Origin: a virus
Virus genome (UHGV): UHGV-0159506
DNA: 17,827 nt
Direction: 5' to 3' (one strand)
The notes beneath the pieces are model-generated. The model did not search any database. It had not been told where the DNA came from and saw only the letters and a list, made by a program, of their open reading frames with translations. The translations under genes and the position numbers were made by a program. The number at the start of each line of letters is the position of its first letter. The first letter of the stretch is position 1. Of the stretch, positions 12,707 through 16,978 are shown piece by piece.

Positions 12707-12782
12707 TGGTGGCCCCTACCGGACTTGAACCGGTGACCGTGCGATTATGAGTCGCCAGCTCTAACCACTGAGCTAAAGGGCC
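12707..12782 (-). tRNA. tRNA-Ile (anticodon CAU, lysidine type; Met cannot be fully excluded), CCA encoded
   Basis: Manually folded cloverleaf: acceptor GGCCCTT/AGGGGCC, D-arm GCTC-AGTGGTTA-GAGC, anticodon loop CTCATAA, T-arm ACCGG-TTCAAGT-CCGGT. It closely resembles E. coli ileX as I recall it. Confidence 0.8.
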
Positions 12783-13057: not shown

Positions 13058-13491
13058 TACAGATAATCTTCCACACGAAGACCTAAACGACGGCCTACTT
13101 CTTCCAGTACTTTGTGTTCTGCTGGCTCGATTTCACCGTCCGCTTCTGCAATTGTCAGCATGTTAACGAATACTTCTTCCGCTTCTTTTGGATCGTTTTT
13201 GATATCTTCAATTTCGCGAAGGATATTCATGCGACCAACACGGAAGCCAGCTTCCAGTTGCTCGGTAAAGCGGGTAATTGTTGCAGTAATTTCGTTACCA
13301 AAATGACTAAGACGCGGATTAGAGCGGACAAGCTGATCAAGTTTCGCTGTTTCTTCTTTTTCGATTTCACCATCAGCGGCAGACACCAACAAACAGCCAC
13401 CGATACTGGCCTCCATCAGATCGCGATTCTCAACTTTTTTCAGCTCTACTTTTGCAGAAGCGACTTTCTTGCCGAACAATTTACCGAACAT
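13057..13491 (-). CDS. tciA: TerB-like (tellurite-resistance TerB domain) protein, P1 TciA-like
   Basis: Track ORF of 144 aa with ATG start and GAGGG SD. It has the two TerB-like acidic ADG-containing helices (LLVSAADGEIEKEE, LTIAEADGEIEPAEHKVLEEVGRRLGL). Confidence 0.75.
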   Translation of the reverse strand: MFGKLFGKKVASAKVELKKVENRDLMEASIGGCLLVSAADGEIEKEETAKLDQLVRSNPRLSHFGNEITATITRFTEQLEAGFRVGRMNILREIEDIKNDPKEAEEVFVNMLTIAEADGEIEPAEHKVLEEVGRRLGLRVEDYL

Positions 13492-14241
13492 TGGTTATCC
13501 CTCAATAAAAGTGACATATTTATTAGATTGCGGTGCCGGGTTCCTCCCGGTGTCCTTTGGCTGGTTATCCACCGTGGACGGGGAAACAAGGAGAAATGAA
13601 TGGACTGATATAACCATTTCCCCGCGTGCGCTTAGCCGCATTCACCGCAACGGAAAGAGCATTCTTGGTGGACCTGTAGATTGGGATATGAACCCGTTAC
13701 AGGAGAATGCTCTTACCTTTTACGTGCTCCGTTTCGTGGAGCTAACGGCGGGTGATCGGGCCGCACCAGACTGGACTTATTTCAGCGTTATGCTCATGCC
13801 AGAGAATCAAACTGTGATGGTCGGTGCTGAACTCCGACACAGGGTTGTAGCAAGCCCCACAAAGCGCGCACTACTGTAGTTGCGGCACATCAGCCTGTGC
13901 ATTCACCACAATGTTGAGAACACTGGTTGTCACGCTGCAACGCAACATTTATTCGTAGATTGGGATATGACCCCGTTACGCCAGTGTTCTCAACGTTGTA
14001 GTGCCGGTTACGGTTCCGGCCAGGCCTCTTCCTCAACGGGGTGTTCTCCATACGGACTACCGTTTATTGGTCGTTCCTGCGGTTTATGTTGTGAAGCCAG
14101 ATGCTTATCTTCTGGTTGCTTCAAAGAGCTGCACTTCATCACAACGGTAAGAGCACTGATACGGTTGGTTTTTGCCTCCGGATCGACTTGCGTCTTGTGT
14201 GCTGGCCCGCTCATCGCCAATGCTCTTACCTGTTGTGTTGG

Positions 14242-14314
14242 TGCCGATTAACGGACTCGAACCGCTGACATCCTGCTTACAAGGCAGGCGCTCTACCAAC
14301 TGAGCTAAACCGGC
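14242..14314 (-). tRNA. tRNA-Thr (anticodon UGU)
   Basis: Manual fold: acceptor GCCGGTT/AATCGGC, D-arm GCTC-AGTTGGTA-GAGC, anticodon stem CCTGC/GCAGG with loop CTTGTAA, T-arm with TTCGAGT loop. It is separated from tRNA-Asn by about 2 nt. Confidence 0.8.
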
Positions 14315-14316
14315 AT

Positions 14317-14392
14317 TGGCGATGGTGGATGGATTTGAACCATCGACCCGTTGATTAACAGTCAACCGCTCTAACCACTGAGCTACACCATC
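14317..14392 (-). tRNA. tRNA-Asn (anticodon GUU), CCA encoded
   Basis: Manual fold: acceptor GATGGTG/CACCATC, D-arm GCTC-AGTGGTTA-GAGC, anticodon stem GTTGA/TCAAC with loop CTGTTAA, T-loop TTCAAAT, discriminator G followed by CCA. Confidence 0.8.
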
Positions 14393-14856
14393 ACTTGCCG
14401 GGTACGTCTCCGGCGAGGGCTTCCACCTCCGTATGCTTTTCGGCGCACCGCGCCCTGACTGCAATTCGGTAACAGGGGATGCATAACCCTGGCTTCCAGC
14501 GTGATTAGCGCCTTCAGCATGACGGGATATACCCGTAAATTCGTGGAACTGTACCCAAAGTGCTGTTAAGCACCGCTGTTACGCTGAAAAGAAGACGCAA
14601 CAGGAAAGGACGCTGACCAACAGATGGCCCCTTCTCGTTCATCTGGTTAATCACACCAGCGCCCTTACCTGTTGTGCCTCCCCGTTCCCTAATACACAGA
14701 CGGGGACACTCTGCGGTCGATTTTTTGACGGGGGACGACTCATACCCCGTGGCATCTGGCTTCTTAGGCCGCTACCATCATCAGATCATCGTTTGCATTT
14801 ACTTTAATGGTCAGTTTCTAAACCGCCGCAAAGTCGCTAACCATGACGAAAACCCT

Positions 14857-14883
14857 GAAAAAAACGCCCACCCGAAGATGGGC
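14857..14883 (-). terminator. rho-independent terminator within the leader upstream of the tRNA/helicase operon
   Basis: On the minus strand: GCCCAUC-UUCG-GGUGGGC (7-bp stem with one G-U pair, UUCG tetraloop) followed by GUUUUUUUC. It lies about 165 nt downstream of the operator-controlled promoter. Confidence 0.6.
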
Positions 14884-15047
14884 AAACTGGAAGCTCGTAA
14901 CGCACTTCGGTGTTGCCACTTAGGCGTATGGTCAACCTGGCAACTCGGCGTCATGAGGGGGAAGGAGTCACTACCCCGCCATACTTGCCGCCGCGCCTGT
15001 CGCGGCTAACAGCTAAATCGCTCTATAAATCACGATTCATTGAGGCG

Positions 15048-15077
15048 ATATTACACTAATAAATTTATTAGAGCAAT
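15048..15077 (-). promoter_or_regulatory. sigma70-type promoter overlapped by a palindromic pair of C1 operator sites
   Basis: The minus strand reads ATTGCTCTAATAAATTT, a 17/17 match to the P1 C1 operator consensus, at 15061-15077. An overlapping 15/17 site lies on the plus strand at 15050-15066. The -35 TTGCTC, a 17-nt spacer and the -10 TAATAT are read off the minus strand. The methyltransferase stop codon is embedded in the operator. Confidence 0.6.
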
Positions 15078-16978
15078 ATGCCTAAAACGTCATGAGCAAC
15101 ACCTCGAGTGTCCCCCTTACAAGACACAGAACGTCTGGCAAAGAGAGGTTCCACTCTGAAGCCACTGTCCTGATAAAGCTCTCTGATGTTTGGCGCGCCA
15201 CTGTTAGTAATGAGTACCTTTGCACCTCGGCGATGAGCATCCGTCAACAGAGACACCAGGCGTTTTTGCTCTTCAAACTTAAAGTCATGACCGGAATAGT
15301 TCGTGAATCCCTCTGTATTTGGAAGCGGTTCATACGGCGGATCGCAAAAGATGACATCTCCTTCTCCGGCAGCTTCAATCACCGCTGCAAAATCACCGCA
15401 TACAAACTCAGACCGCCCTTCCGCACCGAGGAAGGCTTCCATCTCCTGTAATGGAAAATGCGTAGACTTATACTTCCCATACCCTACATTGAACTCACCG
15501 GCCTGGTTGTAGCGCGTCAATCCATTAAAACAATGTCGGTTCAGGAACAAAAACGCCGCTGCGCGATGTAAATCATCATAGACTTGTTTGTTAAACGCAT
15601 TCCGTACTGCCAGGAATCCCTCCTGGGTGTTGTAGTCCAAGAAGAAACGATGTGCCAGAGTGATAAGTGAATGCGCCTCGCGTTGCAGAGTCTTGTAAAA
15701 GTTAATCAGGTCAGCATTCACATCATTTAGCAGATTTTCCTGGTATCCGGCATTCATGAAGACAGCTCCGCCACCGACGAAAGGTTCAATCAGGCGCTTC
15801 CCTTCTGGCAAATAGCGAAAGATTTGTTCCAGAACACCAAATTTTCCACCAGCCCATTTGAATATGGACCGTTCGAATTCTGCCGCTGGTTTAACTTTTC
15901 GCTCTTTTGTTTCACTCCCTTCATTCTGCCGACATGCAGCCTTGGTAATCCGATCGCCAATCCAGCGCATTACTGGTATTGCCATACTATTGCCGATCGC
16001 TTTGTAACGCGGTCCGTCAGCTGCAAGCATCGCGGCCTCTTCTTCGCTTAAATCAGGATAGTTATTGCGAAGGTATGCCAGTTCATCTGAAGAAACTTTT
16101 TTACGCTTTTCCGTAGGGATCAACGTATGCCCATCAGGAAAACCTTGCAGCCTTTCACATTCGACAGGGGTAAGACGGCGTATTCTACCGTCGCCGAGCA
16201 ATACAATTGGTGCTTCATGGTTACATGTCAAAGTTGGTGCCGAATTATCGGTTTTTATCTCAGCCCCTCCTTGCCCATGTGCCATGGCAACTATGTTTGT
16301 ATCATCGCAAGATCTGATAGCGATGTTTGAAGTATATCTGGTAGTTTCCTTCCCCTCGCCTCTGCTCGGCGCAATATCCCGGCGCACGCCTTCGAACTCA
16401 AAAAGTACCGTTGCGGGATCGAGGTCTGTTCGAGCACTTGCGACAACAAACACGCGTCGGCGTCGTTGTGCCACTCCGAAGTATTGGGCATCAAGGATTC
16501 TCCAGGCCACTTTTCGCTGCGGTCCATAAATACAACCACACTGCGGCCACTTTGGAGCATGGCAACCGGTTTTGCCATCCCACCGCCAGAACGCGTTACT
16601 TTTTCCTGATTCAGGTCGATCACCTGGTTCAAATGGCGCATCTTCTCCAGCCAATCCGGCAAGGAAACATCCGAAGGCGTTATCTGCCGATGACAAGACT
16701 CCTGGGACATTTTCCCAGACAATAACGGCTGGTTTGAGAAATGACTCAGCCCGTTTGTCGTCAATTGCATTTGCAAGCTCCACATACTTTAAAGTTAGCG
16801 CGCCACGCTCATCATCAAGCCCACCACGTAATCCAGCGATACTGAATGCCTGACAGTTATGGACCACCGCACCATTGAGGATATAGGAATGATCACCTTC
16901 GACTTCTATGTTGTATACAGTATCTAGGCCTACCGATTTAAACTCTTTGACTGTTCGTAAAAGCATTCCGTGAGCCAA
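15068..16978 (-). CDS. dmt: bifunctional DNA methyltransferase: C5-cytosine domain (motifs IV-X) fused to Dam-like N6-adenine domain; the first ~41 codons are the intein C-terminal segment
   Basis: Track ORF of 636 aa. C5 motifs present: IV (CQAFSIAG), VI (ENVPG), VIII (QRRRRVF), IX (RLTPVECERLQGFPD), X (IGNSMAIPV). Dam motifs present: KWAGGK, EPFVGGGAVF, DPPY. Motifs I-III are absent because the N-terminal part lies upstream of the intein. As drawn, the ORF begins at a TTG four codons after an in-frame TAA; the ATG five codons in (MLLRTVKEF) is a plausible start. Confidence 0.8.
   Translation of the reverse strand: MAHGMLLRTVKEFKSVGLDTVYNIEVEGDHSYILNGAVVHNCQAFSIAGLRGGLDDERGALTLKYVELANAIDDKRAESFLKPAVIVWENVPGVLSSADNAFGCFLAGLAGEDAPFEPGDRPESGKSNAFWRWDGKTGCHAPKWPQCGCIYGPQRKVAWRILDAQYFGVAQRRRRVFVVASARTDLDPATVLFEFEGVRRDIAPSRGEGKETTRYTSNIAIRSCDDTNIVAMAHGQGGAEIKTDNSAPTLTCNHEAPIVLLGDGRIRRLTPVECERLQGFPDGHTLIPTEKRKKVSSDELAYLRNNYPDLSEEEAAMLAADGPRYKAIGNSMAIPVMRWIGDRITKAACRQNEGSETKERKVKPAAEFERSIFKWAGGKFGVLEQIFRYLPEGKRLIEPFVGGGAVFMNAGYQENLLNDVNADLINFYKTLQREAHSLITLAHRFFLDYNTQEGFLAVRNAFNKQVYDDLHRAAAFLFLNRHCFNGLTRYNQAGEFNVGYGKYKSTHFPLQEMEAFLGAEGRSEFVCGDFAAVIEAAGEGDVIFCDPPYEPLPNTEGFTNYSGHDFKFEEQKRLVSLLTDAHRRGAKVLITNSGAPNIRELYQDSGFRVEPLFARRSVSCKGDTRGVAHDVLGILL

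Follow-up and report, generated by a model that had tools for sequence, protein, structure and literature searches.

The interval of about 750 bp between the genes trnT and tciA of a P1-like phage-plasmid probably is a transcribed array of RNA modules. We read it as three long conserved hairpins, a set of leader and spacer modules, and a small RNA resembling STnc100/PasD, all on the minus strand. Most likely it does not contain the pair of protein genes, 'upl' and 'plp', that has been annotated at this position in P1.

Location of the interval and its annotation as protein genes

Judged by its sequence, the stretch of DNA analysed (17.8 kb, called the window below) is from a P1-like phage-plasmid, and positions 13492-14241 correspond to the upl/plp region of the P1 annotation. 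P1, a model phage, stands for a large group of phage-plasmids as their prototype. Identity between the interval and the corresponding DNA of P1, RCS47 and similar phages is 94-99% (94% for P1 itself), and matches to it were found in 934 plasmid records and in 715 of 5,426 complete E. coli genomes. It lies within the C1-repressed ban operon on the minus strand, where the order from the promoter P1ban is a DicF-like region, trnA, trnT, the interval, tciABC, trnI and ban. The bivalent C1 operator matches its consensus with 0 mismatches at 15061-15077 and with 2 at 15050-15066, and the operator and its 61 preceding bases are identical to P1. A search of both strands of 13300-15100 for a sigma-70-like promoter found none. 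P1ban would be expected to drive minus-strand transcription across the whole array to tciABC, trnI and ban. The genes for tRNA-Thr and tRNA-Asn are the real tRNA genes of the array (14239..14392, minus strand); a tmRNA-tag-like element was also seen at about 14700-14870.

In the one P1 RNA-seq paper that mentions upl, it is upregulated in a dksA host along with tciB, the strand not being stated in the passage found; in the passages found, the P1 RNA-seq papers give no strand-resolved data on the upl/plp locus. A literature search for 'ban operon' together with tRNA returned no match.

Table 1. Features of the interval and its surroundings, in window positions.
Feature	Position	Strand	Description
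ORFs corresponding to upl (from 13688) and plp of P1	13469..13879, 13880..14251	plus	judged not to be genes
SL1	13529..13649	minus	STnc100/PasD-family-like small RNA element (Rfam RF02076), directly upstream of tciA
Hairpin unit A	13648..13721	minus	arms 13649-13665 / 13704-13720; loop has copy 1 of the 25-bp repeat (13676-13700)
Module X2	13722..13812	minus	91 nt; small hairpin GCUCCACGAAACGGAGC at 13726-13742
SL2 leader module	13813..13898	minus	starts with UGUGGUGAAUGC (STnc100/PasD-type start motif); ends with hairpin GUCGGAGUUCAGCACCGAC, then CAUCACA
Hairpin unit B	13899..14003	minus	arms 13904-13926 / 13981-14003; loop has copy 2 of the repeat (13955-13979)
Module X1	14004..14087	minus	84 nt; slot between leader and hairpin unit, filled elsewhere by a tRNA
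Short leader	14088..14131	minus	hairpin GAAGCAACCAGAAGAUAAGCAUCUGGCUUC, then ACAACA
Hairpin unit C	14142..14235	minus	core arms 14146-14158 / 14218-14230; stem extends to ~20 bp with one bulged A
tRNA-Thr(UGU)	14239-14314	minus	ARAGORN, Rfam
tRNA-Asn(GUU)	14317-14392	minus	ARAGORN, Rfam
Hairpin unit D	14599..14674	minus	fourth family member, upstream of tRNA-Asn, outside the interval
C1 operator Oban/Op72	15050..15077	.	bivalent, overlaps P1ban; P1 annotation and consensus match

The 2004 annotation of P1 reads the plus strand as a small protein (Upl; YP_006539, hypothetical protein) and a lipoprotein (Plp; YP_006538, 'putative lipoprotein'), and these are the same ORFs at the same locus as here. 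The preliminary description had noted that the two ORFs share one frame, with a TAG between them and a copy of the 25-bp repeat in that frame in each, and this is correct. The window, P1 and RCS47 all have both ORFs open and sharing a frame, and read-through of the TAG could possibly join them. The distance between the repeat copies, 279 bp, is divisible by three, hence the deletion seen in SJ46-type relatives stays in frame. PHROGs families also exist for the ORFs (phrog_7444 and phrog_14500), but they are made solely of these ORF predictions.

The substitutions tell a different story. About 220 unique substitution events were scored in six frames with tciA as the control, and no codon-level constraint was seen in any of the six frames of the interval. 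In upl the changes are spread 16/16/17 over the three codon positions and in plp 15/23/27, with synonymous fractions of 0.35 and 0.37 against a neutral 0.28, and plp acquires two new stops. The control tciA is strongly constrained (2/2/22; synonymous fraction 0.81 against a neutral 0.29). Three short minus-strand ORFs (48, 53 and 70 aa) have no coding pattern either. Comparison with P1-type relatives, which had been proposed as a check, adds indels of 1 and 2 bp at 13847, 13870, 13884 and 13936, and swaps of whole segments: P7/D6-type relatives have tRNA-Ser in place of most of upl, and others have, instead of the 3' part of plp, a different sequence that is 247 bp longer. Moreover, plp overlaps tRNA-Thr in antisense, there is no promoter-like site, no Pfam domain is found in either ORF at E<=0.1, and by inspection the Plp translation has only 6 residues before its first cysteine, the supposed lipobox cysteine. 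PGAP calls no gene here in nearly all of the RefSeq P1-like plasmids listed among the 715 matching E. coli genomes, and the P7 record has no gene annotated at this position. By the codon test the protein-gene reading is largely refuted, and we regard real upl and plp genes as highly improbable. The earlier statement that no convincing gene is present agrees with all of these lines: codon test, Pfam, frameshifts and cassette swaps, PGAP and the P7 record.

A family of long hairpins

The interval holds three hairpin units of one kind, in the order C, B, A. Together with unit D they make four in the window, all between 13648 and 14674 with none elsewhere, and in the complete P1 genome the stretch from dmt to tciA is the one place where units are found. 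Read on the minus strand, the stem of 20-24 bp has the form CACAAC-A-GGUAAGRGCAUU…AAUGCYCUUACC-GUUGUG with one bulged A. The loops, of ~20-70 nt, differ between units.

What had been noticed of this family was a 25-bp direct repeat and two inverted repeats. The direct repeat, GTAGATTGGGATATGA[A/C]CCCGTTAC, is real; copy 1 was placed correctly and copy 2 one base too far, at 13956. Within the window it has 2 matches at <=3 mismatches, against 0.00 expected from 200 shuffles. It forms the shared core of two hairpin loops, with a predicted small stem-loop GUA-ACGGGKUCAUAUCCCAAUC-UAC, and it is a deletion point in SJ46-type relatives. The inverted repeat bracketing copy 2 also exists, but at 17 bp it was given too short, its arms being 23 nt long and 91% complementary. 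That abutting tRNA-Thr had its left arm placed ~9 nt off; the true arms are 13 nt long and 92% complementary (Table 1). The preliminary description did not contain the third hairpin, around copy 1, nor unit D, nor a direct repeat whose three copies (13638, 13899 and 14132) each stand where a hairpin starts. It had offered a structured RNA, a duplicated element or a decayed gene as possible readings. The hairpins do form a repeated family, and a structured RNA, on the minus strand, is the best supported of the three by the STnc100-like match, the covarying stems and the strand-specific excess of G·U.

Structure prediction and covariation, also suggested at that stage, favour the sense fold and covarying stems. 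The predicted energy of unit A is -32.3 kcal/mol in sense and -28.8 in antisense, that of unit B -45.3 and -39.1, and in 11 of 12 unit types the sense fold is the more stable. Compensatory changes set the stem of unit B apart from those of units A and C (GUUGAGAAC/GUUCUCAAC versus GGUAAGAGC/GCUCUUACC). When 52 distinct arm pairs were aligned by their arms only and counted directly, 87.0% of cells paired compared with 76.7±0.6% after shuffling, a control that ignores relatedness. Changes on both sides occur in 12 of 21 stem pairs. Cells with such double changes number 128, against 39.6±4.4 in shuffled sets (reached in 0 of 500 shuffles), and the covariation score is 0.396 against 0.202 for shuffled and <=0.131 for slid partners. 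The inner helix contains 72 cases of G·U and 7 of A·C; the asymmetry is weak in the outer 7-bp helix (27-28 G·U versus 17-31 A·C). The stems thus keep their pairing by compensatory change, and G·U is accepted in them where A·C hardly ever is, which points to a selected fold on the strand of the tRNAs, the minus strand. Much of the covariation comes from the comparison of paralogous units, where copying of palindromes at the DNA level could also match the arms. Since single-stranded DNA, too, tolerates G·T better than any other mismatch, the strand asymmetry is no strict proof of RNA.

Hairpin units directly follow the last tRNA of a block, starting 4 nt past the CCA of tRNA-Thr (unit C in the window) and of tRNA-Ser; 161 units start <=10 nt from a tRNA 3' end, units adjoin the 3' ends of tRNAs in three unrelated phage backbones, and 1350 lie on the same strand as nearby tRNAs versus 128 that do not. 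In SSU5-like Klebsiella plasmids they come after tRNA 3' ends, next to tRNA-Ser, and in lambdoid prophages they lie between Q and the holin gene, in the late leader; in both settings the units stand between elements resembling stable RNAs. A genome-wide species scan for the unit gave only two loci, of which one, in a metagenome-assembled genome of Omnitrophota, is probably a chance match; it is uninformative because species-representative genomes rarely carry such phages. In full-text literature searches the stem sequences turned up only in vertebrate and plant primers that have no relation to them.

Exchangeable modules and a candidate small RNA

Between the hairpins lie modules that relatives exchange. 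In many of them a tRNA-Ser(UGA) with its own trailer hairpin takes the place of 13669-13812 (X2 and, from unit A, the loop and 5' arm), and SL2 stands directly upstream of tRNA-Ser. The 3' part of X2 recurs ahead of a hairpin unit in the lambdoid late leader, with a chromosomal match to 13706-13750. The stretch 14088-14155 is 94% identical to the one immediately upstream of tRNA-Ser in Klebsiella SSU5-like plasmids. At the site of unit C, OP279344 and RCS47 have two separate units and are 247 bp longer, whereas the window has a single unit with its own loop. The same array in relatives also holds tRNA-Ser(UGA), tRNA-Tyr and tRNA-Arg(UCU), and the hairpin arms and unit edges are the breakpoints at which tRNA-Ser, extra units and loops are gained, lost or swapped. 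SJ46-type relatives have a hybrid unit whose arms match poorly, so that at least one unit is dispensable. Searches of Rfam gave no match for X2, and for X1 neither a tRNA nor any other match. SL2 was considered as a formal member of STnc100; as Rfam returned no match for it, we claim only a resemblance by eye at the level of motifs. Weak hits of the interval to miRNA families in Rfam are merely long hairpins.

SL1, which adjoins the ribosome-binding region of tciA, resembles a known small-RNA family. An 8-bp closing helix (UUGCGGUG…CACCGCAA) surrounds several hairpins with a CUCCUU motif inside. The AAGGAG (13590-13595) followed by ATG AAT GGA CTG ATA TAA, which had been described on the other strand, is present as reported and is the complement of this conserved motif. 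SL1 matches RF02076 with 33.9 bits, below the gathering score of 47 (E 4.8e-5 in the window, 1.7e-5 in a near-identical relative); its orthologues reach 38.0-47.3 bits, the highest, from E. albertii (L007), passing the gathering score. In the window and in the orthologues the match spans only model positions 31-147 of 206, and it aligns the closing helix, the first hairpin and the terminal CCGGGAGGNACCCGG hairpin. The consensus fold retains the closing helix and the terminal hairpins, with scant covariation, as the relatives are too similar or else, in the centre, unalignable: the centre exists in two mutually unalignable variants, both of which keep CUCCUU. A mosaic breakpoint (13522/13529) coincides with the 3' end of SL1.

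PasD (EcOnc13) and the related STnc100 have been described as prophage small RNAs, in Salmonella and pathogenic E. coli. PasD was also seen by RIL-seq in EPEC, and its stability is Hfq-dependent by Northern blot. The setting of SL1, next to tciA (TerB family) and tciB (DUF3927), is likewise of the prophage type and resembles that of PasD2, which adjoins a DUF3927 gene in prophage PP2 of EPEC. PasD2 starts with CAUGGUGAAUCC, which resembles the UGYGGUGAAUGC motif of the locus here. A full-length STnc100 match lies beside DicF and dicB in another sequence (L118). The putative small RNA SL1 differs from these RNAs in its replaced central part, the partial model match and a window score below the cut-off. 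It also differs in its place, ahead of tciA within the long leader of an operon, which belongs to a P1-type phage-plasmid and not to a lambdoid prophage.

Alternative readings and a possible role as punctuation

Several other explanations of the hairpins can be considered. If they were elements of DNA only, either selfish palindromic repeats of the MITE/REP type or recombination linkers at cassette boundaries, one would expect what is in fact seen in their size (70-115 bp, inverted terminal arms of ~20 bp), in mosaic breakpoints at their edges, in the occurrence of hybrid units, and in arms that are kept while loops are swapped. However, the units are confined to one locus in P1 and in the window instead of being dispersed. 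Their strand is almost always that of the adjacent tRNAs, whose 3' ends they abut in three unrelated backbones, and a strand-specific G·U excess of 72 to 7 is unexpected for repeats in double-stranded DNA. Reading the sequences by eye, in an unsystematic look, no flanking target-site duplications were apparent. An explanation purely at the DNA level seems unlikely to us. Hairpins acting in single-stranded DNA, for instance as priming or primosome-assembly signals in P1 replication, would agree with the strand-specific tolerance of G·T and with the position upstream of ban, a gene for a DnaB-like helicase; known single-strand initiation signals are structured and ~70-100 nt long. The same units nevertheless occur in lambdoid late leaders and in SSU5-like plasmids with no helicase gene nearby, their orientation follows transcription and the tRNAs, next to whose 3' ends they stand, and the P1 annotation places no replication origin here. 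We consider such a signal very unlikely indeed.

The interval could also be a graveyard of tRNA genes, neutral remnants of a larger cluster with no present function. Relatives do carry tRNA-Ser(UGA) exactly at 13669-13812 and tRNA-Tyr and tRNA-Arg beside Thr/Asn, X1 and X2 are tRNA-sized and occupy tRNA slots, and T-arm-like hairpins are found in loops (AGGGUUCGAAUCCCU in unit C of P1, GUAGAGUUCGACUCUCUAC in type F, GGGUUCAUAUCCC in the 25-nt repeat). Yet neither ARAGORN nor Rfam finds a tRNA cloverleaf in 13492-14238 (cut-off E<=1 for the window and E<=10 for L002, its near-identical relative), and ARAGORN with permissive Rfam scans of the interval and of its longer version in OP279344 gave no tRNA-like match. 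Of the earlier suggestion of a decayed gene there remains that relatives have a tRNA-Ser here; a tRNA remnant in the window is not detectable. Compensatory change maintains the stems, the 25-nt repeat (one position free) is matched exactly in at least 101 stretches of viral-contig DNA, and SL1 matches a small-RNA family and no tRNA. A functionless graveyard is therefore an improbable account.

Under the reading that we prefer, a transcribed array of RNA modules, cutting of one long primary transcript would yield the tRNAs and small RNAs as well as the tciABC-ban mRNA that follows them. Its punctuation marks would be the long hairpins, most likely double-stranded processing sites of the RNase III type; the predicted stems have the ~20 bp or more of double strand expected of an RNase III hairpin. 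Cleavage by RNase III is what we infer, and RNase E processing, an exonuclease barrier, protection from Rho or binding of a protein would fit the observations too. Besides this, or in place of it, the hairpins may insulate structures or block exonucleases, so that each adjacent RNA could fold and mature by itself. In the DNA, the conserved arms could act as recombination anchors, which would explain the cassette-like mosaicism. In unit C, bases 14212-14223 of the loop are a perfect complement of 14313-14324, where the 3' end of tRNA-Asn meets the 5' end of tRNA-Thr.

Comparable systems exist. The T4 tRNA cluster with its species 1 and 2 RNAs is a phage stable-RNA cluster, RNase III hairpins are found between the early genes of T7 and around rRNAs, and RNase III together with RNase E frees DicF from the dicB operon. 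As in these, several tRNAs and small RNAs are proposed here to come from one long transcript, hairpins of at least ~20 bp stand between units, right after tRNA 3' ends, and a DicF-like region lies in the same leader. Unlike the sites in those systems, the hairpins described here, whose loops vary, are of one sequence family that P1-like, SSU5-like and lambdoid elements have in common. A certain likeness also exists to YrlA and other Y-RNA-like RNAs, which join a long stem to a tRNA-like module: here too there is a long terminal stem, and some loops have a T-arm-like hairpin (UUCGAAU or UUCGACU). The loops of the window itself have UUCAUAU or GUCAUAU and no canonical T-loop, the sole match to the YrlA model RF02553 (25.6 bits, cut-off 69) falls on the true tRNAs at 14255-14372, and the window shows no Rsr/Ro gene context.

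A bolder suggestion can be made only tentatively, and we think it rather doubtful: that the hairpins are a previously undescribed 'punctuation' element common to temperate enterobacterial phages of different families (P1-like, SSU5-like and lambdoid), which would mark off and release from one leader a changeable set of stable RNAs, namely tRNAs, STnc100/PasD-type RNAs and a tmRNA-tag-like element. The variable loops, of which some have T-arm-like hairpins and one is complementary to the tRNA-Asn 3' end, might then be functional small RNAs or decoys. On this bolder reading the ban leader of P1 would be an array of RNA-gene cassettes and not a leader with two orphan ORFs. The common non-coding modules are, as far as searched, absent from Rfam 15.

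If the preferred reading is correct, upl and plp should be dropped from the P1 annotation, and the ~1.5 kb between P1ban and tciA would be redrawn as an array of RNA genes. It would provide a testable model in which phage tRNAs and STnc100/PasD-type RNAs come from one repressor-controlled transcript. The repeated arms, as recombination anchors, would explain why tRNAs (Ser-UGA, Tyr, Arg-UCU) are gained and lost at this hotspot, and P1-like, SSU5-like and lambdoid phages would be linked by common non-coding modules.

Operon setting and coding capacity

The interval between the TerB-like gene tciA and tRNA-Thr (13492-14241), with its flanks, shares 94-99% identity with phage P1 and with its relatives RCS47, JL22, P7, D6 and SJ46. 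The same stretch is carried by 934 plasmid records and by 715 of 5,426 complete E. coli genomes, in which it is mainly plasmid-borne. In the P1 reference record this is the upl/plp region, and the minus-strand gene order there is dmt, P1ban with the bivalent C1 operator, a 'dicF-like region', trnA (Asn), trnT (Thr), the interval, tciA, tciB, tciC, trnI and ban. Both half-sites of the operator are kept in the window, where the operator bases and the 61 preceding them are exactly those of P1. This places the interval inside a repressor-controlled operon whose transcription runs along the minus strand, whereas the predictions of upl and plp are for the plus strand. Some 170 nt past P1ban, where P1's 'dicF-like' region ends, stands a terminator-like hairpin (GCCCAUCUUCGGGUGGGC, then U7), and the route from P1ban to the tRNAs and ban requires read-through of it. 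Around this hairpin Rfam gave no DicF match at E<=1.

Public records of phages, plasmids and viral contigs supplied 74 distinct versions of the region, and each unique substitution that they show relative to the window was scored as one event. In tciA, the control, events at codon positions 1/2/3 number 2/2/22 and the synonymous fraction is 0.81 (neutral 0.29). The corresponding values are 16/16/17 and 0.35 (neutral 0.28) for upl, and 15/23/27 and 0.37 (neutral 0.28) for plp, which also acquires two new stop codons among relatives. The codon test found no departure from neutrality in any of the six frames across the whole interval. Relatives have 1- and 2-bp indels within both ORFs, and whole segments of the interval are swapped among them. 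No Pfam domain was found in either ORF, their PHROG matches are families built from those very ORF calls, and plp lies partly antisense to tRNA-Thr. Neither strand has a sigma-70-like promoter by consensus scan. The NCBI pipeline calls no gene at the interval in nearly all RefSeq P1-like plasmids among the matches listed, and none is annotated there in the P7 record. The preliminary description had seen no convincing gene here, and the codon test, the indels, the segment exchange and the lack of a Pfam domain bear this out. Its cautious reading, a structured RNA or duplicated element rather than a gene, is likewise supported.

Features of the interval and its surroundings in window coordinates
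Feature	Position	Strand	Remark
CAU tRNA	12707-12782		tRNA-Ile2 in P1 annotation
upl/plp ORFs	13469-13879, 13880-14251	+	equivalents of P1 predictions
SL1	13529-13649	-	STnc100/PasD-like element
AAGGAG	13590-13595	+
Unit A	13648-13721	-
Unit B	13899-14003	-
Unit C	14142-14235	-
Unit D	14599-14674	-	fourth hairpin of same kind
Direct repeat, 25 nt	13676-13700, 13955-13979		core of loops of units A and B
Inverted repeat around second copy	13904-13926 / 13981-14003		arms 23 nt
Inverted repeat beside tRNA-Thr	14146-14158 / 14218-14230
Tag-like element	about 14700-14870	-	non-coding, about 170 nt
Tag-like frame	about 14764-14796	-
Terminator-like hairpin	14865-14884	-
C1 operator, perfect consensus match	15061-15077		kept in window
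C1 operator, second half-site	15050-15066		kept in window
Sharp breakpoints (segment map)	13522/29, 13663/68, 13700↔13955, 13809/13, 13885-99, 14002/03, 14084/88, 14157|14219

A family of hairpin units beside tRNAs

Four nucleotides past the CCA of tRNA-Thr, the minus strand begins a hairpin of the form CACAAC-A-GGUAAGRGCAUU… loop …AAUGCYCUUACC-GUUGUG. The same hairpin starts 4 nt past the CCA of tRNA-Ser in relatives, and units A and B repeat the element with no tRNA preceding them. The predicted stems are of 20-24 bp with a single bulged A, while the loops are entirely different from one unit type to another. Every feature reported earlier was found in the window. The 25-nt direct repeat has its two copies (chance expectation none), the second not at 13956-13980 as had been given; the inverted repeat around that copy is longer than described, at 23 nt, and the one beside tRNA-Thr is present, its left arm having been placed about 9 nt too far right. 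What had been missed is the overall pattern: three stretches open with a common motif (13638, 13899, 14132), each being a long hairpin.

All four units of the window fall within 13648-14674, and in a complete P1 genome units are confined to the dmt-tciA stretch. In all loci fetched, units are on the same strand as the nearby tRNAs 1350 times versus 128 times not, these exceptions being near-palindromic units to which a simple scan cannot assign a strand; the start of 161 units is no more than 10 nt from a tRNA 3' end. Lambdoid prophages have the same units between the gene for the Q antiterminator and that for the holin, and SSU5-like plasmids from Klebsiella and E. coli have them beside tRNA-Ser/Thr/Asn.

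For covariation, the arms of 52 distinct units were joined by a fixed linker and aligned, and a stated structure of 21 pairs was counted. Pairing cells make up 87.0%, versus 76.7±0.6% when shuffled, and 12 of the 21 stem pairs have changes on both sides. Double-change cells number 128 versus 39.6±4.4 shuffled (0/500 shuffles), and the covariation score is 0.396 versus 0.202 shuffled and at most 0.131 with slid partners, much of the signal coming from paralogous units. The 14-bp inner helix has 72 G·U cells and 7 A·C; the outer helix has little strand bias. For 11 of 12 unit types, the tRNA-sense strand gives the more stable fold of the two strands. This G·U excess, together with the more stable sense fold, therefore indicates a selected structure on the transcribed strand, though G·T tolerance of the stems would also fit single-stranded DNA.

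Some loops hold canonical T-arm-like hairpins, AGGG-UUCGAAU-CCCU (which stacks beside the long stem) and GUAGAG-UUCGACU-CUCUAC, as in the unit after tRNA-Thr of P1 (NC_005856, locus L001) and in relative loci L015 and L119. They suggest cargo that derives from tRNAs or mimics them. In the window itself the loops carry no more than a degenerate version, GGG-UUCAUAU-CCC. In the loop of unit C, 12 nt (14212-14223) are perfectly complementary to 14313-14324, a junction made up of the final 8 nt of tRNA-Asn with its CCA, the two spacer nucleotides and the first two of tRNA-Thr. Few relatives have this loop variant: of 60 plasmid matches listed, only 1 covers it.

Mosaic tRNA cluster and neighbouring RNA elements

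The edges of hairpin units are recombination breakpoints. L108-type relatives have tRNA-Ser and its own trailer hairpin in place of window 13669-13812. SJ46-type relatives have lost all sequence between the two 25-nt repeat copies (279 bp); this loss, at window equivalents 13700 and 13955, is seen in L006/L076 (phage SJ46), L043 and L046, and leaves a poorly paired hybrid of the unit B 5' arm and the unit A 3' arm. OP279344 and RCS47 have 247 bp extra, forming two separate units versus one unit with its own loop in the window. ARAGORN places tRNA-Ser(UGA) within the equivalent interval of P7, D6 and many plasmids, and tRNA-Tyr and tRNA-Arg(UCU) beside Thr/Asn in other relatives. The sets of P1-like elements are Asn-Thr, Asn-Tyr-Thr, Arg(UCU)-Tyr-Thr or Arg(UCU)-Thr, with or without Ser(UGA), varying at window equivalent 14315 in relatives L008, L009, L012-L016, L105 and others. 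The window's set is minimal, Asn and Thr plus the CAU tRNA, and neither ARAGORN nor Rfam detects a tRNA remnant in its interval.

Directly upstream of tciA, SL1 aligns to the Rfam STnc100 model with 33.9 bits (E about 1e-5). Its orthologous counterparts in eight relatives score 38-47.3 bits, and one of these attains the gathering score. Both STnc100 and its relative PasD are small RNAs of prophages; for PasD, validation came from Northern blotting and RIL-seq in EPEC. Downstream of Q, a DUF3927 (tciB-type) gene has PasD2 next to it, and the start of PasD2, CAUGGUGAAUCC, may be compared with UGYGGUGAAUGC, which opens SL1 and recurs directly after units A and B and the tRNA-Ser trailer unit. The 5' strand of SL1's closing helix overlaps the 3' end of unit A by about 5 nt, so both helices cannot be complete simultaneously. 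SL1's central part exists in two variants, window type and P7 type, that are not alignable to each other; both keep CUCCUU or CCUCCUU, which resembles the anti-Shine-Dalgarno sequence and may be a pairing seed for ribosome-binding sites. The strong AAGGAG noted earlier on the plus strand is indeed present, as the complement of this CUCCUU. In a lambdoid prophage of the E. coli E9 chromosome (L118, 2829-3099), DicF (45.4 bits) and, immediately next to it, a full-length but sub-threshold match to STnc100 (34.9 bits) are found upstream of dicB; the leader of P1 ban likewise pairs a DicF-like region with an STnc100-like element.

Just outside the interval is an element resembling the tag-template part of tmRNA. 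Its frame, UAAAU GCA AAC GAU GAU CUG AUG AUG GUA GCG GCC UAA, reads ANDDLMMVAA and stop, where the E. coli tag is ANDENYALAA. An alignment to the Rfam permuted-tmRNA model spans exactly this part, with a score of only 24.1 bits, and ARAGORN detects neither a tmRNA nor a tRNA-like domain in the element. The frame has 10 codons in 54 of 54 distinct copies from many phage types; the peptide takes seven forms (ANDD/ANDE…AA or VA), and synonymous differences are numerous. The element again lies between hairpin units in phages of lambdoid and other types. A lambdoid-prophage query containing the homologous stretch matched 616 phage records of many families, and most of the matches listed cover the tag-like stretch; they include Drexlerviridae, 156-160 kb Salmonella phages, IME11-like and Klebsiella phages, the DNA there being usually unannotated.

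A proposed model of transcript processing

The interval occupies an operon position, lacks coding constraint and has a modular, RNA-like anatomy; its units covary in their stems, are biased in strand and are linked to tRNA 3' ends. We suggest that a primary transcript would be processed into tRNAs, small RNAs and mRNA, with the hairpins as its punctuation. Cleavage of the RNase III type would be the most natural reading of such long stems, by analogy with T7 early RNA, rRNA operons and DicF. It is also possible that the hairpins are exonuclease barriers or folding insulators, or that they protect a long untranslated leader from Rho.

The locus is a phage stable-RNA cluster with putative processing hairpins, which is a known kind, and it holds a sub-threshold member of a known small-RNA family, STnc100. 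For the hairpin family itself we could find no earlier description: Rfam 15 has no family for the units, the sole matches being chance ones to miRNA hairpins, and nothing relevant to the stem sequence was found in full-text literature. The non-coding result at upl/plp corrects the annotation of a model phage, P1, and the locus gives a testable model of RNA processing.
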